From contig JAGOQP010000005.1 in assembly GCA_017991375.1 (NCBI GenBank), forward strand, positions 8,348-72,347: a stretch of 64,000 nucleotides of DNA. Reading direction: 5' to 3'. The notes under the pieces were generated by a model. That model was not told where the DNA came from, did not search any database, and saw only the letters and a program-made list of their open reading frames with translations. This DNA is from Minisyncoccota bacterium (GTDB lineage Bacteria; Patescibacteriota; Minisyncoccia; UBA6257; JAGOQP01). Positions 37,841 to 55,869 of this stretch are shown in pieces. The translations under genes were made by a program, and so were the position numbers. Within the stretch, counting starts at the first letter, position 1; the number at the start of each line of letters is the position of its first letter.

Positions 37841-37950
37841 GGATGTCAAATGATCGGATATCAGATGTCAGAGGTCGGAGATCAGATATCGGATGGCAGA
37901 GATCAGATGGCGGATATCGGACGTCAGATGTCAGGGGTCAGATATCGGAG
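37841..37950. repeat. Degenerate tandem 9-12-nt repeats (GATATCGGA / GATGTCAGA / GATCAGAT units)
   Basis: ...gatgtcaaatgatcggatatcagatgtcagaggtcggagatcagatatcggatggcagagatcagatggcggatatcggacgtcagatgtcaggggtcagatatcggag... A related short array is at 49427..49485. Confidence 0.7.
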
Positions 37951-38016
37951 GGCCGGAAGCAAATGGCGGGAGTTTTTCTTCCCCATCCTCTTTCGTTAAA
38001 ACTACGGATGACACTC

Positions 38017-38050
38017 CTAAAACAAAATAAGCCGTCTGGCTTATTTTGTT
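38017..38050 (-). terminator. Terminator downstream of ssrA
   Basis: Minus strand: aaaataagccagacggcttatttt + gtttt. Confidence 0.55.
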
Positions 38051-38094
38051 TACGAAGCGCTGCGCACTTCGTAGTCCACTGTAGTGGACGAAGG

Positions 38095-38419
38095 AGTGGA
38101 GATGGCGGGAGTTGAACCCGCATCCAGGATAGACCACTATAAACGTCTACATGTTTAGTTTCAGAAAGAAACGATTTTCGCTCTCTTGATGTCCGTGCGT
38201 GTACGAGAGCGCTCTACGCACGTAAGTTCCATATATAACACCGGTTAACTCCCTATGAAACATCAGGAACCGATGGCCTGCGGCTAAGATACCTTAAGGT
38301 TCTTATGCGTAGGCAAGAGCTAATTTTTGGTTAGCATCTATTTTGTGTGTCGGATTAATGAGGCGACGGCTCAACATGCAATTTGTAGCGCGCGTATCCT
38401 GTCGAGGCCTGGCATCCCC
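38095..38419 (-). ncRNA. ssrA: tmRNA (SsrA)
   Basis: Minus strand: 5' GGGGATGCCAGGCCTCGACAGG..., internal tag ORF GCTAACCAAAAATTAGCTCTTGCCTACGCATAA encoding ANQKLALAYA*, and a 3' tRNA-like end GGATGCGGGTTCAACTCCCGCCATCTCCA. The ~10-nt ends are approximate. Confidence 0.85.
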
Positions 38420-38472: not shown

Positions 38473-38910
38473 TTACTCAATTCCTCTGCTGGCAGAACGT
38501 TGGGTGTCGCGTTTTTTTATCGTTTCACGCTTGTCTCCCTTGGTTTTGCTTTTAGCAAGCCCTAATTCCAACTTTATTTTGCCATGATTATTATACAATT
38601 TTAGTGGCACTAGCGTCAAGCCCTTCTGTTGCGTGGCACCTAGGAGCTCTTTTATTTCTTTTTTATTGAGCAATAATGCGCGTGCCCGCGTGGGGTCATA
38701 CCCCGGAGCCGTGTTTTTTTGTTGGTAGGGGCCGATAGTGGCGCCTACAAGCCATGCGGTATTATTGTATATTTTTGCGAACGAGCCGATAATACTTGCT
38801 TTGCCAACCGTTACCGCTTTTGCTTCGTGTCCGAGTAATGAAAGCCCCGCCTCGTAGGTTGAGAGGATTTCATAATCGAATCGTGCTTTTTTATTTACAA
38901 TCGGTTCCAT
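38473..38910 (-). CDS. smpB: SsrA-binding protein SmpB
   Basis: KKARFDYEILSTYEAGLSLLGHEAKAV...GKIKLELGLAKSK. Adjacent to ssrA. Confidence 0.9.
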   Translation of the reverse strand: MEPIVNKKARFDYEILSTYEAGLSLLGHEAKAVTVGKASIIGSFAKIYNNTAWLVGATIGPYQQKNTAPGYDPTRARALLLNKKEIKELLGATQQKGLTLVPLKLYNNHGKIKLELGLAKSKTKGDKRETIKKRDTQRSASRGIE

Positions 38911-39001
38911 GCTCTTTTGTAGTATACATAAAAACGACGCATTGTTATATGCGTTACCGTATTAGTTGAAGAAAGGGCGCATATTTGCTATAGTTTTTTG
39001 T

Positions 39002-42000
39002 ATGCTACGAAATCTTAAATCGTTTACCCCTCCCGAACTAGAAGAAAAAGTGCTGGCACTCTGGAAAGAAAAGAATGTATTCAAAAAATCTATTACTCCC
39101 AAGAAAGGCGCGCGTGTTCGCCGATTTAATTTTTGGGAAGGACCGCCAACTGCCAACGGACGCCCCGGGATTCATCATGTGCTCGCGCGAGCGTTTAAAG
39201 ACGTGGTGTTGCGATTTAAAACGATGCAGGGCTTTATTGTTCCTCGAAAAGGGGGGTGGGATACGCACGGATTACCAGTTGAACTACAAGTAGAAAAGCA
39301 ACTAGGATTTACATCAAAAAAAGACATTGAAGCATTTGGTGTCGCTTCGTTTAACCAAAAGTGTAAAGAGTCGGTGTGGCTGTATAAGAGTGAGTGGGAG
39401 AAGCTCACTGAACGTATGGGGTATTGGTTGGATCTTGAACACCCATATGTGACGTATCACAAGAGCTATATGGAGTCGCTGTGGTGGATTATCAAACAGA
39501 TTTGGGACAAGGGGTTGTTGTATAAAGGACACAAAGTTGTTCCCTGGTGCACGCGTTGTGGCACGGCTCTTTCGTCTCACGAATTGGCACAAGGGTACAA
39601 AGAAGTAACTGATACATCGGTGTATGTAAAGTTTAAATTATTACCAAAACAAAAAATCGGTTCTTTTGTTACTGATGATAATACATTCATTCTTTCGTGG
39701 ACGACAACGCCGTGGACATTGCCAGGAAATGTTGCGCTCGCGGTTGGAGAAAAGATTCAATACAAAGCAGTGAAAGACCAAGAGAGTAAAGAAGTGTACA
39801 TCTTAGCATATGAATTAATAGAGAATGTGTTAAAGAAGGATGGATTGGAACCTATATCCGATATAAAAGGAAAGGATCTTGTCGGACTTTCGTACGAACC
39901 TCTTTTTAACGTGCCGTCACTCCATTCGGGCACATCATACCGCGTATATCCTGCTGATTTTGTGACGACAACCGATGGAACCGGTGTTGTGCACACCGCG
40001 GTTATGTACGGTGAAGATGATTACGTCTTAGGAAAAGAAGTTGAATTGCCACAAAAACACACCGTTGATGAGCAAGGATTTTTTACTAAGGAGGTAGTCG
40101 ATCTTGCGGGTCTCTACGCCAAAGATAAAAAAACAGAAGAAACTATTGTGCGTATTCTTTCGCAAAAAAATCTAATTCTTTCCACAGTTCCTCACACACA
40201 TGACTATCCTCATTGCTGGAGATGTGGCACGCCTCTTTTGTACTACGCTCGCTCATCGTGGTTTGTCGCGATGTCGAAATTACGCGCCCAACTTATTGAA
40301 TCAAACAAGGACACCATTTGGGTCCCCTCACATATTAAAGAAGGACGATTTGGTGAATGGCTTTCTGAAGTTAAGGATTGGAATTTTTCCCGTGAGCGGT
40401 ATTGGGGAACACCGCTTCCTATATGGGAATGTTCGTGCGGTCATCAAGAGGCGATAGGGAGTTATATGGAATTAAGTGCGCGTCTGCCACACTCTACTAA
40501 CCGCTACATTTTCGTGCGGCACGGAGAAGCGGGCCATAATATAAAACATATCATTAACTCAGATCCTAAAAATAAAGACGAATTTTCTCTCACTAAAAAA
40601 GGAGAACAACAGGTTGCAAAAACAGCGGCACAACTTAAAAAAACATTTAAGCGAGTAGACGCGCTCTATTCATCCGATTTTATTCGTGCCAGAGAAACGG
40701 CGAGTATTATCGCTCGCGCAGTGGGGGCATCTCACGTTCATTATGACCCGAGATTAAGAGAAATTTTTGTCGGTTCATTTGAAGGAGAGCATATGGATCG
40801 ATACCATCACTACTACGCATCACTCGAAGAAAAATTTATAAAACCAGCTCCCGAGGGAGAAAGTTTACAAGATGTTGCCGCTCGCGTGTGGGATTTTATC
40901 TCCGCGTGTGAAAAGAAGCATACAAATGAAACCATTGTGGTGGTAAGTCACGAGTATCCTATATGGATGCTTGAAGCAGTGCTTTCCGGTTGGAGTCAAG
41001 AGGAGGCGGTAGCCAAAAAAGAAAGCCGTGGCGATGATTTTATTGCTCTTGCCGAGTCGCGCGCGGTAGAGTGCGTCGCCGCGTCACGTGACGAGAAGGG
41101 TTTTGCTGATTATCACAAACCATACATTGACGCGGTTACTATTCCCTGTAAGAAATGCGGTGCTCATATGACGCGCGTGAAGGAGGTTGTAGATGTGTGG
41201 TTTGATTCTGGCGCAATGCCGTTTGCGCAATCGCATTATCCATTTGGGGCAACCAACAACCAACCCTTCGATCCCTCAGGATCTGCCATAAGCAGACAAC
41301 CAACAACCAACGAAAAAAAATAGGGAACGAAAGATAAAAAACAAAACATCGATGAGCTTGTCTATCCGGCGGAGTATATTTCCGAAGCCATTGATCAAAC
41401 ACGTGGGTGGTTCTACACCCTATTAGCGGTGGCAACGCTTTTGGGAAAGCCCACCCCGTATAAAAACATTATTTGTCTTGGACACATCAACGACAAAAAT
41501 GGACAAAAAATGTCCAAGTCAAAAGGAAATATTGTTGATCCATGGGGAGTGGCCAACAAATATGGCATGGATGCTATTCGGTGGTATTTGTACTCCGTCA
41601 ACAGCCCGGGAGATCCAAAGAACTTTGATGAGGACGAGGTGGCAAAAATTGTACGTAGCGTACTACTCACACTCTATAACTCGTTTGTATTTTTAAACGT
41701 GTATGGAAAAGACAAGTTGTTGCTTACCAGACAGCCGGCGGCAGTGGGGGCGCTTGATACATGGATCTACGCGCGCGTTGCCCAGGTAAGTGCCGCGGTA
41801 CGTGAACGTATGGACGCATACGACATTACCAAATCCACTCAACTCATAGAAGAATTTATCGACGATTTGTCGCGGTGGTATATTCGTCGTTCTCGCAAGC
41901 GATTTCAGCGCCCTCAAAACGCGGCCGAACATCAACGCGTGTCCGCGGTTCTTGCATTTGTGCTTTTTGAAACAAGTAAAATAATCGCTCCATTTCTTCC

Positions 42001-42676
42001 TTTTTTTGCCGAGGAGCTTTATCAGTCGCTTGTTCATATGTATCGATGCGATGCTAAGGACTCTGTTCATCTGGCGTCATGGCCGCAAAGTTCAAAATCA
42101 ACATTTAATAATGCTTTGTGCGAGCATATGACGCGAGTGCGTTCCATTGCTTCACTCGCATTAGCGTTGCGCGCTGAGCTTGGTATAAAAGTTCGTCAAC
42201 CGCTTGCCACTCTGACGGTTAAGGGAGATGTTTTTTCGGGAGTATTTGCACAAGAACTTCTGGATATTCTTAAAGAGGAGGTGAACGTAAAAAACGTGGT
42301 GTTCGATAAAAATCTTGATACCGATGTTATATTAGATACTGTTATTACGCCAGAACTTAGAGCAGAAGGATTGCTTCGCGAAATGACTCGTGTGGTACAA
42401 GATCTTCGTCAAGAGGCGGGGTATGTGCCGCAAGATACTATCGCGCTGTGGATCGACACCAATGGTTCGCTCGCGCCGCTTCTTCGTACGCATCAGGAAC
42501 GGTTTGCAAAAGACGTTGGAGCATACGTAGTTAATTTTGAAAAAAGCGCACTCTTTGACGCAGAAATAGAGACCAAGGTTGATGATCAGCGGGTGTGGGT
42601 GGGGGTCAAAAAAGAGACAAACAACTCACGACATACAACCAACAACAAGAAAGAAAAGAAGAATAAGAGGCATTAA
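39002..42676 (+). CDS. ileS: Isoleucine--tRNA ligase (type 2, Cys-knuckle type). One frame throughout, interrupted by a single in-frame TAG at 41321-41323, with an embedded histidine-phosphatase domain
   Basis: HIGH = PGIHHVLARAFKD. KMSKS = KMSKSKGN (41507-41530). The editing/CP1 and anticodon-binding regions are present. Across the TAG the frame reads ...[44 protein letters not shown]..., which is the conserved IleRS '..DQ.RGWF' block. A PGAM-like domain (RYIFVRHGEAGHN ... IVVVSHEYPIWMLEAVL) sits between WECSCG and PCKKCGAH. Confidence 0.85.
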
Positions 42677-49318: not shown

Positions 49319-49391
49319 CCCCTCATAGCTCAATTGGTAGAGCTGCTCCCTCTTAAGGAGAAGGTTCTAGGTTCGAGTCCTAGTGGGGGGA
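49319..49391 (+). tRNA. tRNA-Lys (anticodon CUU)
   Basis: CCCCTCA-TA-GCTC-AATTGGTA-GAGC-T-GCTCC-CTCTTAA-GGAGA-AGGTT-CTAGG-TTCGAGT-CCTAG-TGGGGGG-A. Confidence 0.85.
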
Positions 49392-49495
49392 CTCTTCCTG
49401 TGTTTGTTTACAAAAATGTGGGAGGATGAGATCGGAGAGTGAATATCGGAAGGATATCAGATATCTGAAATCTGGCGTCTGACCTTTGAATAATT

Positions 49496-49568
49496 GCGGG
49501 TGTCGTATAGTGGCTTATTATACTTCCTTGCCAAGGAAGAGATGGGAGTTCGATTCTCCTCACCCGCT
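49496..49568 (+). tRNA. tRNA-Gly (anticodon GCC)
   Basis: GCGGGTG...CTTCC-TTGCCAA-GGAAG...GGGAG-TTCGATT-CTCCT-CACCCGC-T. Confidence 0.85.
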
Positions 49569-49656
49569 CGTTGAAATAACTCACAACCTACAACCTACAA
49601 CTTACAACAGGGACTTGTGTAGTTAGTCGTCAGTCGTCAGTTGTTAGTCATCTCTG

Positions 49657-49728
49657 TACCTCCGGAGGGATTTGAACCCCCAATAACAGGTTCGAAGCCT
49701 GTGGTGATATCCGTTTCACTACGGAGGC
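49657..49728 (-). tRNA. tRNA-Arg (anticodon UCG)
   Basis: Reverse complement: GCCTCCG-TA-GTGA-AACGGATA-TCAC-C-ACAGG-CTTCGAA-CCTGT-TATTG-GGGGG-TTCAAAT-CCCTC-CGGAGGT-A. Confidence 0.8.
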
Positions 49729-49773
49729 GACTTTTAACGCGTAGACGCGCTTGGTGTATAATAAAACGATTAT

Positions 49774-51243
49774 ATGGTTTCCGTCAAAGTTCCACATGAA
49801 ATTATTGCCCTCATGACCACGTTAAAAAACGCGGGTTTTGAGGCATATGTGGTTGGAGGATGTGTGCGCGATGCTCTATTGGGAATCGTTCCACATGATT
49901 GGGATGTTACTACAAATGCCACCCCAGATCGTGTCCAAGAGTTATTCCCAGAACATGTCTATGAAAATGCATTTGGAACAGTGGGTGTCAAAACTGGAAG
50001 TGATGATCCCACCTGCGCGATTGTTGAAGTAACCACCTATCGCGTTGAGCAAGGATATTCTGACGCGCGCCATCCCGACTCTGTTTCTTTTGCGCGCACT
50101 GTTTCAGAAGATCTTGCTCGCCGTGATTTTACGGTTAATGCTATCGCGCTTGCTGTTGACGATAATGGTTCGGTGATTGAAATAATAGACCCGTTTGGGG
50201 GACAAGATGATAATACAAAAAAGATTATTCGCGCTGTTGGTGATGCTCGAACACGATTTGGAGAAGACGCACTTCGTATGATGCGCGCGGTGCGATTATC
50301 TGCACAACTAGATTTTACTATTGACATAGACACGCAGCGCGCCATTTCTGATCAGGCACACCTTCTTAAGCGTATTTCAAAAGAACGTGTGCGGGATGAA
50401 TTTATTAAAATAATTATGACTCCGCGTGCCGCGTGGGGAGTTCAACTATTAGAATCATTTGGGTTACTCACTTTTATCGCCCCCGGTCTTCGAGAAGGAA
50501 TTGGTGTTACTCAAAATTTGCATCACATTTATACCGTGTGGGAACACAATTTGCGAACGCTTGATTATGCGGCGACAAAAGGGTTCTCTCTCCCCATTCG
50601 ATTGGCCGCGCTTTTTCATGATGTGGGTAAGCCTCGTTCAAAACGTGGAGAAGGGGAATATTCAACATTCTATTCGCACGAAATGGTAAGTACGCGCATT
50701 ATTCGTGATACTCTGCGCGATTTGAAATTTTCTTCCGATGTTGAACGGGATGCGACACATTTGGTGCGATATCATATGTTTAACTATGCCGTGGGTGACG
50801 TATCCCCTGCGGGAGTTAGACGCTTGGTTGCTCGCGTGGGAGAACACTATATTGATGATCTTATCAAGCTGCGTGAGGCGGATCGTATCGGATCAGGAGT
50901 CCCTAAAGCAATGCCGTATAAGTTGCGGCATCTTCTGTTTATGATCGAGAAGGTAAAAAACGACCCCATTTCTCCAAAAAAATTAGTTATTAACGGTACG
51001 CAGATTATGGACATGCTCACTCTTTATCCCAGTCCACGAGTGGGGCATATTCTTAATGCGTTGTTGGAGGAAGTTATTGATGATCCTACGCGTAATGAGT
51101 ATGGCTATCTTTCGACGCGCGCGCGGGAACTTAATATGTTATCTGACCAGGAGCTTGAGAAACTTCACATAAAAGCACAGCAAGCAAAAGAAGCATTTGA
51201 CGCGGTCGCCGAAGAAGAAATAAAGAAAAAACACAAGGTATAA
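49774..51243 (+). CDS. cca: CCA-adding tRNA nucleotidyltransferase with a C-terminal HD domain
   Basis: Pol-beta head GGCVRDALLG..DWDV (DxD), RDFTVNAIAL, and HD motifs (LAALFHDVGKP ... HMFNY). Confidence 0.85.
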   Translation: MVSVKVPHEIIALMTTLKNAGFEAYVVGGCVRDALLGIVPHDWDVTTNATPDRVQELFPEHVYENAFGTVGVKTGSDDPTCAIVEVTTYRVEQGYSDARHPDSVSFARTVSEDLARRDFTVNAIALAVDDNGSVIEIIDPFGGQDDNTKKIIRAVGDARTRFGEDALRMMRAVRLSAQLDFTIDIDTQRAISDQAHLLKRISKERVRDEFIKIIMTPRAAWGVQLLESFGLLTFIAPGLREGIGVTQNLHHIYTVWEHNLRTLDYAATKGFSLPIRLAALFHDVGKPRSKRGEGEYSTFYSHEMVSTRIIRDTLRDLKFSSDVERDATHLVRYHMFNYAVGDVSPAGVRRLVARVGEHYIDDLIKLREADRIGSGVPKAMPYKLRHLLFMIEKVKNDPISPKKLVINGTQIMDMLTLYPSPRVGHILNALLEEVIDDPTRNEYGYLSTRARELNMLSDQELEKLHIKAQQAKEAFDAVAEEEIKKKHKV

Positions 51244-52889: not shown

Positions 52890-53315
52890 ATGAAGGCGAT
52901 ATTAAAACAAGTTACCGATTTTGATTCGACATCTTCTGACGAATCTCTGATCAAAAAAAATACTATAGTCAAAGAAGAAAAAATAACTTCTAACGATGGT
53001 GGCCAAGAGCGTGTTGAACTGATAAAAAAAGAAATTGAGGTTATCGAGCCGATATTTATTGAAGTGGATGATCGGACATATATCAAGTTCGATAAAAGTT
53101 CGCATCGTTCTGAAACTATTAATGTTGGCGAATTACGGGATCGCAAACAAGAAATTGAAACACGGCTTGCTCTTTTAAACGACTACTCCGATGAAAACTT
53201 ACTAGCATGGGCAAAGAGTAATTACCCAGGAGAAACGGGTGTCAAAGAAAGAGAGCAGTTAATAAGCGAGCTTAATACTATTAACGGTAATTTAAACGAA
53301 ATCGATGGCGATTAA
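52890..53315 (+). CDS. Small acidic hypothetical protein; overlaps the downstream giant ORF, suggesting translational coupling
   Basis: 141 aa, E/D/K-rich with no TM. Its stop overlaps the start of the 854-aa ORF by 11 nt. Confidence 0.35.
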   Translation: MKAILKQVTDFDSTSSDESLIKKNTIVKEEKITSNDGGQERVELIKKEIEVIEPIFIEVDDRTYIKFDKSSHRSETINVGELRDRKQEIETRLALLNDYSDENLLAWAKSNYPGETGVKEREQLISELNTINGNLNEIDGD

Positions 53316-55869
53316 GGTTGCTACATCATCGGGGAACTTCAACACCGCAGGTACGTGGTACACGGGAACAGAAACCAATACTGGAAGCACGGGCGGTACA
53401 ACTATGTCGACTACCCGTTACACGGCTGCTTTTACCGCCCCAAACACGACGAACACTTGTCAAGGGATAGTCGTATTAATGTATAGTTTGCCAACGTCGT
53501 CTCTTTCAAGTGTTACTGCGCAACTGCAAGAGTATAATGGGAGTACGTGGAATGATTGCGCCGGGGCGTCGATGACTCTTAACGAAAGCGACATTGACGC
53601 GTTCCGTTACTACACCGCTTCAACCACTGTTGCGTTGTTCTTGTATTTCAAGTTCGGAACGCCTTACACGTACACGACGACCTCTGCGGGTTATTATCGC
53701 GTAAAGCTTTCTCGCGCAGTGGCGAGCGCGTCAACCGCCGTGTATGCAAGCACGGTGACGAGTGAGGTGTGGGGGGTTATTGTTGATGACCGCACAGGCG
53801 CACCAGCTTCTTCAGATACGTGTTATGTGGTTGGCGTAACGGGGACGAAGACGACGGTGACGCTTGATGGTGCTTGCGCTTGCGGCCCAACGGTTGCGAC
53901 TGATGGTACTGATTATAGTACGATAACACCCTCTAACTCTGCTAACTGGGGGTTGTGCATAGGTTATCAAGGACAAGTCATTCCCGATTCAACGCAAAAC
54001 ACAACTCTGACAATGAATGGTTCTGCTCCGATTGTCGTTGCTGGAGGTCAGCTTAACTTCGGAACAGCTTCCGCGCCTTACACCGCTTCGTATACCGCGC
54101 AGATTGTTTATAACCCAAAAACGGCTTATTCGTGTGGTATTAGGGTTTATGGGTACAATGCTTCGTTAGAGCATTTCAGTATGGTTGGTCAGAGTAAGAC
54201 ATACAAGACCACCTATACTTCTGGCGCTGGAACGACCGCGAGTCCTTTAGTGGTCGCTGACGCGACTGGCTGGGCGGTTGGAGACCTCATCGGAGTGTCG
54301 GGCGATGCTTACAACAAACACGAGTTTAAGTACATAAAGACACTTGCGGGAACGTCTATCACCACTGCCGATAGTGTTGGTGGCGCAGAAAGCGGTTTTT
54401 CAAACACTCATTACGCGGCTGATTGGGTGCTGAACCTTTCTCGTAACGTGAAAATGGTTTCTTCGGGCGCGAACAAGTTTTGGTTCGGTTTTTTGAACAA
54501 TGTTTCTACGACTGCGGGGATTATGAAGTACGCAGAGTTTTCAGACATCGGAGGAAACGCGAGTTCACGGTTTACTTTTTTCATCGCGAACACTGCTCGC
54601 CACGCAATCAATATTGAAGGGTGCGCCATTTATGACATTCGCAACACGACTAATCTTACACAACCGTTGATTTACGGCTACGACACCTCTAACGCAAGCA
54701 ACACATACAAGAACAACGTGCATTTCGTGGCGGTGCTCGCAACAGTTCCTTATGTGAGTACGATGGCGCGGTTGTCGTTGAAGAACAACTCTGCCACGAA
54801 CGTTACAAACAATTATTTCGTCGGCGGTAGATACATTGGGTGTGACTTGTATGGCTATGGAGCGACGTACGATAATTTTCACGTCAGAAACGCGAGCGCA
54901 GGATATTCAAGCTCAACTTCTTACGCGGGAATAATCGCCAATAGTGGCGCTAACGTCACGCTACAAAACTGCACAGTCAATGCTTCGCGGAGTCACGCAC
55001 TAACCATAAACGCCAATGACAACAATCTTCTCGTGAAAAACTGTTCTTTTGGGACGGTGTATGCGAACAGCGCGCTTGGCGATGTTTCGCTCAATTCATT
55101 TGGTTCGTACAGCACGGCAGTTTTTGACTCGTGCGACTTCAGTAGCGCTGGCGGGTGGTATTTCTATGTAGCAGGATCCAATGGGTATATGTATAACTCT
55201 GCGGGTTCTCAGTATGCTTTCCAAAACTATGATAATTCAAGTGGCGACCACAGGGTGTATAAACCTGAGGGTGATATACAAAGAACTGCAGCGGGACTTA
55301 CCGATACAACGGTCAGAACGACTGGCGGGAGTTGTTTAAGATTTACTCCGATAGATACGACAAACAGATTAGAATGGTCGCAGGATGTTCCTGTCGGCGA
55401 CGTTACCGCGCAAACAATGACTGTCGGCGTGTGGTGCAAGATTAACAGCGCGACATATTACGCGGGAACGAATCAGATGCCTCGCCTTACAGTAGATTAT
55501 GATAACGGCACGACGGCTTACGCGGAGGCGGCAGAATCAACTGATTGGCAATTTCTATCTATCCCCGTTACCGCCACAACTTCATATCCTAAATGGGAAC
55601 TAACCGTCTCTGCATTGACTGATGCTACAAGCACAGATGCTTATGTTTACTTCACCGACTTCTCGGTGCTCTACCCTGCGGGTTATCAGCTGAAACTCGG
55701 AGAACTGGCTTACTTTGCAGATGGAGAGCCGTTAAAGCCGACGATAGCGACCAATTTGTCACCTGCTGATGTATGGGCGGTGAGCACGAGCGGGCTTACT
55801 GGTGATGGGACAATAGGAAGGTTTGTTACAAAGTTATTAACGGTGGCGAAGTTTTTGGGGCTAAAGTAA
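53305..55869 (+). CDS. Large S/T/N/G/Y-rich protein with a predicted right-handed beta-helix (tailspike / pectin-lyase-fold-like), no signal peptide
   Basis: 854 aa. Repetitive N-x-T/S and 'NVTLQNCTV / NLLVKNCSF' rungs typical of parallel beta-helices. N-terminus MAIKVATSSGNFNTAGTWYTG has no hydrophobic leader. Confidence 0.4.
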   Translation: MAIKVATSSGNFNTAGTWYTGTETNTGSTGGTTMSTTRYTAAFTAPNTTNTCQGIVVLMYSLPTSSLSSVTAQLQEYNGSTWNDCAGASMTLNESDIDAFRYYTASTTVALFLYFKFGTPYTYTTTSAGYYRVKLSRAVASASTAVYASTVTSEVWGVIVDDRTGAPASSDTCYVVGVTGTKTTVTLDGACACGPTVATDGTDYSTITPSNSANWGLCIGYQGQVIPDSTQNTTLTMNGSAPIVVAGGQLNFGTASAPYTASYTAQIVYNPKTAYSCGIRVYGYNASLEHFSMVGQSKTYKTTYTSGAGTTASPLVVADATGWAVGDLIGVSGDAYNKHEFKYIKTLAGTSITTADSVGGAESGFSNTHYAADWVLNLSRNVKMVSSGANKFWFGFLNNVSTTAGIMKYAEFSDIGGNASSRFTFFIANTARHAINIEGCAIYDIRNTTNLTQPLIYGYDTSNASNTYKNNVHFVAVLATVPYVSTMARLSLKNNSATNVTNNYFVGGRYIGCDLYGYGATYDNFHVRNASAGYSSSTSYAGIIANSGANVTLQNCTVNASRSHALTINANDNNLLVKNCSFGTVYANSALGDVSLNSFGSYSTAVFDSCDFSSAGGWYFYVAGSNGYMYNSAGSQYAFQNYDNSSGDHRVYKPEGDIQRTAAGLTDTTVRTTGGSCLRFTPIDTTNRLEWSQDVPVGDVTAQTMTVGVWCKINSATYYAGTNQMPRLTVDYDNGTTAYAEAAESTDWQFLSIPVTATTSYPKWELTVSALTDATSTDAYVYFTDFSVLYPAGYQLKLGELAYFADGEPLKPTIATNLSPADVWAVSTSGLTGDGTIGRFVTKLLTVAKFLGLK

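Follow-up and report, generated by a model that had tools for sequence, protein, structure and literature searches.

A predicted histidine phosphatase domain nested in the zinc knuckle of type-2 isoleucyl-tRNA synthetase in Patescibacteria, with stand-alone counterparts encoded beside ileS

We analyzed a 64,000-nucleotide stretch of a Minisyncoccota genome (the window; contig JAGOQP010000005.1 of GenBank assembly GCA_017991375.1), which carries an ileS gene for a type-2 isoleucyl-tRNA synthetase (IleRS) with a phosphatase domain nested inside it. The gene lies on the + strand at 39002..42676 and spans 1224 codons, broken by an in-frame TAG at codon 774. Its true start is the ATG at 39002 (MLRNLKSF), as in the database protein P0121; the listed TTG start is wrong. 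The listed + strand open reading frame (ORF), 38966..41323, holds the peptide strings quoted in an earlier note on this DNA, which had proposed that a histidine phosphatase interrupts the zinc knuckle of IleRS. Pfam identifies tRNA-synt_1 in this ORF at aa 29-502, followed by His_Phos_1 at aa 515-680 (nt 40508-41005), and finds the remainder of tRNA-synt_1 (323-406), Anticodon_1, and DUF5915 downstream in the same frame. P0121 matches the window product at every residue but that of codon 774, where it has Trp. This intact protein passes the IleRS equivalog model TIGR00392 with 846.3 bits (cut-off 621.4); the pieces of the window gene on either side of the TAG score 603.9 and 246.8 bits separately because the TAG splits the ORF.

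Judged by its sequence, the host protein is a complete type-2 IleRS, with its motifs and domains present. Its best solved relatives are Thermus thermophilus IleRS (1ILE/1JZQ; E 2e-232) and Priestia megaterium IleRS2 (8C8U-8C9D; E 8e-231), which share with it the domain order, the Cys pairs of the CP3 subdomain, and the type-2 C-terminus. Aligned to HVGH of 1ILE, the class I signature motif (39167..39178, + strand) reads GIHH rather than HxGH, and among relatives the motif is either G[ILVF]HH (GIHH, GLHH, GVHH) or HYGH; in contrast, the Thermus enzyme and wild-type P. megaterium IleRS2 have the canonical HXGH (HVGH in Thermus). In IleRS2, the only type in which it is known, the G/AXHH form is reported to confer hyper-resistance to mupirocin (PMC10485003). 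The CP1 editing motifs are in place (TTTPWT at 39701, and GTGVVH). By Pfam and alignment, the second Rossmann half (DQTRGWFY; KMSKS at 41507-41521), the anticodon-binding domain, and a DUF5915-type C-terminus occupy 41360..42676 (+ strand); this type-2 C-terminus consists of Anticodon_1 and DUF5915, without a C-terminal zinc-binding domain. P0121 scores 761-789 bits on the MupA and MupB models (NF000257 and NF000258), below their cut-off of 1900, reflecting general IleRS2 similarity only, and 303 bits on the model for a GNAT-containing IleRS (NF040702, cut-off 1999), where the matches are to the IleRS flanks. The assignment of the host to type 2, made earlier from the letters alone, is borne out by the solved relatives, the DUF5915 C-terminus, and the TIGR00392 score of P0121.

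The zinc-knuckle region of IleRS is its CP3 subdomain, which contains a zinc-binding motif in the Thermus enzyme and differs in topology in every solved IleRS (Thermus, Candida, and S. aureus; PMC7191050). Alignment with 1ILE places the insert within it: residues 10-495 of the window protein correspond to Thermus residues 10-480, 703-749 to 489-534, and 787-1062 to 542-821. A Thermus loop of about eight residues is thus replaced by about 207 residues, between C477/C479 (CxC) and C716/C719 (CxxC). The N-terminal CP3 flank (40412..40492, + strand) carries the first Cys pair, C477 (40430-40432) and C479 (40436-40438), and the helix IGSYMELSA. The C-terminal flank (41081..41245, + strand) carries DYHKPYID, C716 (41147-41149), and C719 (41156-41158), and then [15 protein letters not shown]. 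The interval 40470-41160 given for the insertion in the earlier note is correct to within one codon of the frame and spans the insert together with the second Cys pair. The knuckle measures 209-220 residues in nested forms and 12-24 in un-nested relatives; its Cys residues are kept in 50-52 of 56 nested proteins, and all four are kept in 46 of 46 un-nested ones. Ordinary IleRS lacks the insert; both the Thermus and the P. megaterium enzymes have about eight residues in place of the phosphatase and its short linkers. In the AF2 model of a full-length homologue that is 60% identical (P0133; pTM 0.83), the phosphatase and both junctions are predicted with pLDDT 91-97, which suggests that the domain is firmly embedded in IleRS and not loosely tethered.

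We use HP for this nested histidine-phosphatase domain and for its stand-alone orthologues. In the window, HP comprises aa 498-693, about 195 residues, encoded at 40493..41080 (+ strand). Its match to His_Phos_1 (PF00300; cut-off 21.7 bits) has an E-value of 8.2e-34 and 117 bits in the ORF, and an E-value of 6.4e-35 in an excised 230-aa segment; scores range over 117-121 bits and cover profile positions 2-165 of 194. HP aligns end to end with free-standing proteins of about 190 aa, starting at the strand with N-x-Y-x-x-x-RHG and finishing at the last strand, with GE-x-RK; the insert is therefore a whole phosphatase and not a fragment. We assign it to branch 1 of the histidine phosphatase superfamily, as predicted by the Pfam match and by the hallmark residues, all of which are present, in agreement with the identity first proposed. 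The 230-aa segment has no Pfam domain other than His_Phos_1, and no Hint or homing-endonuclease domain that would mark an intein or another self-splicing or mobile insertion.

The predicted active site is strongly conserved. In an alignment of 113 related HP domains, comprising nested, stand-alone, and fused forms, the RHG motif (40517..40525, + strand) aligns Arg506 and His507, the predicted phospho-accepting nucleophile, in 112, the single exception being an alignment gap; this Arg and His are also invariant in three further alignments (A1, A4, and A5). The other catalytic residues lie within 40685..40951 (+ strand): Arg562 (40685), Glu620 of GES (40859), and His650 of VSH (40949) are present in all 113 domains, Arg628 (40883) in 111, and position 587, Glu of LRE in the window (40760), is Glu or Asp in all 113. 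Conservation of the catalytic residues is at least 98% in 118 full-length homologues. Across 56 nested proteins, HP has a mean pairwise identity of 0.37, where the IleRS core reaches 0.47-0.52, the C-terminal domain 0.33, and a linker described below 0.12; HP evolves as a constrained domain. An AF2 model of the insert alone has pLDDT 94.3 and pTM 0.90. Foldseek finds 295 matches to this model in the PDB at E ≤ 0.001, and the best 50 listed are all members of the family, with 6S2Q, 3DCY, 4QIH, 4IJ6, and 1H2E at the top.

HP resembles the short branch-1 phosphatases in fold, catalytic set, and length (about 200 aa). These include PhoE/YhfR (1EBB, 1H2E), the metal-independent phosphoserine phosphatase PspA (4IJ5/4IJ6), the glucosyl-3-phosphoglycerate phosphatase Rv2419c (GpgP; 4PZ9/4QIH), the mycobacterial hydrolases 6S2Q/6S2R, TIGAR (3DCY), and CobC (6NRU). 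PhoE is closest by sequence (E 6e-10); by Foldseek, the short phosphatases match with E-values of 1e-13 to 1e-11, query-normalised TM-scores of 0.62-0.70, and 20-28% identity. Unlike HP, none of them is nested in or genetically joined to an aminoacyl-tRNA synthetase. The label "PGAM-family" given in the earlier note holds at the level of the superfamily, but HP falls below every curated mutase or phosphatase equivalog cut-off: 98-102 bits on dPGM_arch (NF038349, cut-off 225), which is nevertheless the best NCBIfam match; 28-34 bits on pgm_1 (TIGR01258, 81.7); 73-78 bits for the window domain and 84-91 for stand-alone orthologues on CobC (TIGR03162, 162.9); 67-75 bits on PspA (NF045917, 350); and 31-38 bits, over the N-terminal part only, on SixA (TIGR00249, 74.5).

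The same insertion recurs in all of the closest relatives. A search with the N-terminal 765 residues of the protein returned 120 best matches at 54-100% identity, every one with both PF00133 and PF00300. Almost all have lengths of 1130-1260 residues (998 and 1044 aa in two shorter cases), and many are encoded on contigs of 50-775 kb. The sources, where named, are Patescibacteria (among them Paceibacterota, Wolfebacteria, Jorgensenbacteria, Liptonbacteria, Minisyncoccia, and Parcubacteria); one Wolfebacteria example comes from a 2011 sample and is also in UniRef. Public databases have contained such proteins for years under no more telling a label than "isoleucine-tRNA ligase" or "class I tRNA ligase family protein". 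The description of it as unusual is therefore right when set against textbook IleRS, but not within this large group of Patescibacteria, where, with 120 of 120 best full-length homologues carrying it, nesting is the norm. Searching with the junction region brought in remoter proteins (34-51% identity) that carry the insert at exactly this site; three of them have lost both Cys pairs together. In some IleRS (P0324, P0327, P0334, and P0266) the CP3 loop accommodates HP in tandem, as two, three, or four copies, and every copy keeps RHG (once RHA). A stand-alone HP of 194 aa (P0430) is named "isoleucyl-tRNA synthetase" by one source, presumably through annotation transfer from a nested protein.

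HP also exists as a gene of its own, which at most of the loci analyzed is found next to ileS. The closest stand-alone relative, P0269 (40% identical; locus L007), has its gene 8 nt upstream of an ileS that lacks the insert; argS precedes the pair and recO follows it. A scan of GTDB with an alignment of stand-alone HP confirmed 406 loci, of which we analyzed the best 80, a set biased towards HP of the stand-alone type. Those with a name are overwhelmingly from Patescibacteria; two labelled otherwise (WOR-3 and Pacearchaeota) are probably mis-binned. Mapping IleRS, ArgRS, RecO, and SmpB onto the 80 loci revealed a conserved order: smpB on the opposite strand, then argS, HP, ileS, and recO. At 48 of these loci HP forms its own ORF immediately upstream of ileS, and at 15 it sits inside ileS at the CP3 site used in the window; one locus reads argS-HP-recO, with ileS missing. 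Pairs of stand-alone HP genes in tandem occur at three loci, upstream of ileS in L040 (6001-7176) and L086 (6001-7177) and at a contig end in L051 (5424-6591). There is no glycolysis gene beside HP at any locus examined. A PD-(D/E)XK nuclease gene follows HP in L008, L023, and L035.

Where HP lies upstream, the two genes are tightly juxtaposed. The HP stop overlaps the ileS start at 36 of the 48 upstream loci (25 as ATGA), and the two genes are 1-11 nt apart at 11 others and 41 nt apart at one, an arrangement that is a mark of translational coupling. The HP-ileS pair persists where argS or recO is not adjacent, this window included, and it persists across IleRS lineages that are only 40-46% identical, while the other neighbors come and go. 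An N-terminal HP-IleRS fusion, which would need only a small frame-restoring indel at the ATGA, is absent from all 80 loci and from each of the 150 best representatives. Stand-alone HP of Patescibacteria (P0269 in L007; L013-L092) are 33-40% identical to the window domain over its full length but are separate polypeptides, with a stop codon that overlaps or abuts the ileS start, and the adjacent IleRS keeps an intact short knuckle. By these comparisons the nested HP is orthologous to the stand-alone gene upstream of ileS in sister Patescibacteria.

Nested and adjacent states are interleaved on the IleRS tree. We built a neighbor-joining (NJ) tree of the IleRS core from identity-based distances over 851 columns, with HP and the linker masked, midpoint rooting, and 40 bootstraps; nested forms are monophyletic in none of the 40 replicates, and an HP tree gives the same picture. 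A divergent IleRS subtype, with DVGNPWLDAG in place of DVWFDSG and a core only 40-46% identical to the window type, forms a clade in 40 of 40 replicates; it occurs in L007, L013, L016, L079, L083, and others, and is likewise linked to HP, both nested and un-nested. The nested protein P0329, whose insert lies at the equivalent position, sits among 14 un-nested members of this clade. Given this interleaving, HP has entered or left the same CP3 loop at least twice. HP has other fusion partners as well. It forms the C-terminus of ArgRS in P0384 (L009/L010, 5001-7070), at a locus reading rplT-rpmI-infC-smpB on one side and argS-HP-recO on the other, the same neighborhood as in the window, and it is fused to the threonylcarbamoyl-AMP synthase TsaC/Sua5 in P0343 (L008, 977-2140). 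A search for more ArgRS-HP proteins found no fragment with both domains in the top 120 matches, all of which are at most 542 aa long and hence too short to include a full-length fusion; ArgRS-HP may be a rare arrangement.

The in-frame TAG at 41321-41323 lies about 80 codons past the insert, within a hypervariable low-complexity linker (aa 749-786; 41246..41359, + strand). This linker follows HYPF, is about 37 residues long, is absent from Thermus IleRS and P. megaterium IleRS2, and is the region with a mean pairwise identity of 0.12; its counterpart in the P0133 model is disordered (residues 751-768, pLDDT 32-39). Three assemblies from different sequencing runs (L004, L005, and L006), 99.86-99.99% identical to the window, have TGG (Trp) here, with G at 41322; over 9583 nt, this base is the sole difference between the window and one of the three. 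The TAG is thus private to the window and represents either an erroneous base or a nonsense allele. Recoding of TAG is ruled out: it ends complete genes for NusA, serine hydroxymethyltransferase (SHMT), 2-Hacid_dh, T2SSE, and LytR in the window, and no tRNA with a CUA anticodon was found. A truly split IleRS is ruled out as well, because the first ATG, GTG, or TTG after the TAG, the GTG at 41429, would delete the conserved DQTRGWFY, and because the near-identical strains have TGG.

These features bear on whether the architecture is an assembly chimera or an ileS pseudogene and thus meaningless, a reading that is largely refuted and that we regard as extremely improbable. In its favor are the TAG itself, the loss of DQTRGWFY from any restart at 41429, and frameshifts in relatives on low-coverage contigs (L002 and L003). 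Against it, the three independent assemblies are uninterrupted, more than 100 intact full-length homologues exist on contigs of up to 775 kb, TAG is a normal stop in this genome, and the break falls in a disordered, hypervariable linker. We also rejected the idea that the fragmented gene calls in L001-L003 represent decaying pseudogenes; these are artefacts of low-coverage contigs or contig ends, and intact homologues number over 100. L001 has an inverted partial ileS-HP copy at a contig end (7548-8919, - strand), probably an assembly artefact, and L002 and L003, at about 3.7x coverage, share an identical series of frameshifts through ileS. The database entries starting "MS.LR" that we checked are a contig-end fragment (L094), a scaffold-gap artefact (L095), and a gene with an in-frame TAG (L093). 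In the last, an unrelated ileS-HP gene on a JGI contig, the TAG (1791-1793) replaces the invariant Trp of the CWRC zinc motif (YPFC*RCGTPLLY); the two TGG-to-TAG cases in the family may be a coincidence of G-to-A changes at Trp codons.

Catalytic domains within IleRS are known in kind. Precedents are the CP1 editing domain of class Ia synthetases and ileS_w_GNAT (NF040702), by its model name an IleRS with an N-acetyltransferase; the latter differs from the window in the enzyme inserted. A PGAM-like domain is also fused to a nucleic-acid enzyme in the bifunctional RNase H/acid phosphatase (NF005567, PRK07238), which HP matches at 71-90 bits, far below the cut-off of 326; there, the fusion is C-terminal and the partner is a different one. 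We found no description of a phosphatase in IleRS in the literature, including papers on IleRS evolution (PMC10485003 and bioRxiv 10.64898/2026.02.03.703510). The combination of HP and IleRS is apparently undescribed, and its history from operon to nested domain apparently has not been noted before.

We propose, with a probability of roughly 0.55, that HP is an active phosphomonoesterase dedicated to IleRS. His507 would take the phosphoryl group, held by Arg506, Arg562, and His650, with Glu587 probably acting as the acid. HP would then add a third catalytic module to the synthetic and editing sites, standing outside the aminoacylation chemistry, and nesting would be the covalent form of an association that is kept elsewhere by translational coupling. 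A real functional tie between HP and IleRS seems at least as probable, because the adjacency and coupling of HP and ileS are kept across deep divergence and because specific fusion has occurred repeatedly. As to the substrate, one tentative candidate is a nucleotide-type ligand or by-product that carries a phosphate and occurs near the synthetase, a tRNA 3' end blocked by a phosphate included; another is an unrelated small metabolite, in which case the link would be co-expression only. The roles suggested in the earlier note, dephosphorylation of a nucleotide by-product or regulatory moonlighting, are speculative. A sensed metabolite that tunes IleRS is an unlikely substrate, as is phosphoglycerate in a mutase role. 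If HP is a partner of IleRS, then a nucleotide-type or tRNA-end substrate is our leading, weakly supported guess, because the neighbors of HP genes located elsewhere are nucleotide or nucleic-acid enzymes, and because IleRS, ArgRS, and TsaC all make adenylates. It is a speculative extension, and on balance a doubtful one, that throughout a class of Patescibacteria IleRS (and sometimes ArgRS) has an obligate HP partner, either a translationally coupled subunit or nested in CP3, that supplies a previously unknown third activity to a class I synthetase, for example by stripping the 3' end of a tRNA, or a nucleotide ligand, of a phosphate that would block or poison charging.

Several observations weigh against a dedicated partnership. 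The genes smpB, argS, ileS, and recO are functionally unrelated housekeeping genes, and conserved order in streamlined Candidate Phyla Radiation (CPR) genomes need not mean interaction. About 10 of the 80 HP loci lie elsewhere, adjoining MazG, NTP_transferase, PD-(D/E)XK nuclease, NYN, Mrr, or M23 genes. Two to four HP copies per loop fit poorly with a precisely positioned, cis-acting site, and the nearest HP structures all act on small metabolites. The ArgRS and TsaC fusions are represented by one protein cluster each, and the apparent repeated traffic of HP into or out of the CP3 loop comes from an NJ tree in which several inner nodes have less than 50% support. Much of this would be expected if HP were a hitch-hiker: an ordinary housekeeping small-molecule phosphatase, ancestrally a neighbor of ileS, whose fusion or nesting came about by chance in small streamlined genomes, with the CP3 loop being the only place in IleRS that tolerates insertion. 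CP3 is structurally plastic, as its differing topologies in Thermus, Candida, and S. aureus indicate (PMC7191050), multi-copy insertions are tolerated, and stand-alone HP genes occur at unrelated loci too. We nevertheless consider chance nesting possible rather than probable: it does not account well for an HP-ileS pair that is kept, with 36 of 48 overlapping, through such divergent IleRS lineages while the other neighbors change, for the use of the same loop in two divergent IleRS subtypes, for the lack of the easy N-terminal fusion among the 80 loci and the 150 best representatives, or for the existence of the ArgRS and TsaC fusions.

Three further explanations assign HP a specific task. HP could repair tRNA ends or the synthetase, removing a phosphate that blocks aminoacylation (a 2'- or 3'-phosphate, a cyclic-phosphate product, or one added by a toxin on A76) or a phosphate on the enzyme itself. 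This idea draws on the repeated joining of HP to tRNA-binding or adenylate-making enzymes (IleRS, ArgRS, and TsaC), on the PD-(D/E)XK, NYN, MazG, and NTP_transferase genes beside HP elsewhere, and on the presence of the RNase H/acid phosphatase among the better-scoring, though far sub-threshold, relatives. It is unlikely in light of other evidence: the structural neighbors include no histidine phosphatase that acts on RNA ends, no defence family in PADLOC-DB matches the insert, P0269, or P0384 at E ≤ 0.01, a general problem of tRNA ends would not be specific to Ile or Arg, and the multi-copy variants argue against exact positioning. Alternatively, HP could be a sensor for a glycolytic or nucleotide phosphate, which it would bind or from which it would transiently take up a phosphoryl group, tuning IleRS to the energy state. 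The rigid embedding of HP, modelled with confidence in CP3 and adjoining the second half of the catalytic fold, would allow conformational coupling, and the phospho-accepting His and its partners are invariant; however, HP is a separate polypeptide in most species, which weakens the case for allostery, and nothing in the data separates binding from turnover. We know of no precedent for the histidine phosphatase family as a regulator of an aminoacyl-tRNA synthetase, and we hold this role to be quite improbable. Equally improbable is that HP is the cofactor-dependent phosphoglycerate mutase (PGM) of Parcubacteria-type cells, expressed together with ileS. In its favor, Jaffe et al. failed to find PGM in some Parcubacteria clades (PMC7304191). 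It also gains from the best NCBIfam match, dPGM_arch, and from the small monomeric S. pombe PGM 1FZT, which has the highest query-normalised TM-score among the listed matches (0.71). But the scores are far below both the dPGM_arch and the TIGR01258 cut-offs, and no locus examined has a glycolysis gene beside HP. Moreover, the HP motifs LRE-x3-G-x2-EG and SH-x are what we take to be phosphatase-type, as opposed to the mutase-type ERHYG and HGN.

The remainder of the window is an ordinary CPR chromosome, with genes for PNPase, RNase J, NusA, an H+-pyrophosphatase, SHMT, FolD, RecA, ClpB, and a type II/IV secretion ATPase. Directly upstream of ileS, and divergent from it, a tmRNA gene (tag peptide ANQKLALAYA; 38094-38419, - strand) lies next to smpB (38473-38910, - strand); the listed ORF at 37843-38115 (+ strand) overlaps the tmRNA and is spurious. 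A tRNA cluster at 49319-49728 (Lys-CTT, Gly-GCC, and Arg-TCG) is followed by a CCA-adding enzyme with an HD domain (49765-51243). The window also encodes large surface proteins without Pfam matches (e.g., 53296-55869).

Aminoacyl-tRNA synthetases are among the best-studied enzymes; they rarely yield a new catalytic module, and those that emerged have mostly led to new biology, such as roles in editing or signalling. Here, a phosphatase whose catalytic residues appear intact is tied to IleRS across hundreds of uncultured species, either nested within it or encoded next to it, with repeated switching between the two; this pattern is a strong comparative-genomic hint of an apparently undescribed functional partnership. 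HP is also a candidate for enzymes thought to be missing from metabolic reconstructions of the CPR, for example phosphoglycerate mutase. Even if the link were co-expression only, these genes would still provide a clean natural case of repeated domain nesting into one permissive loop.

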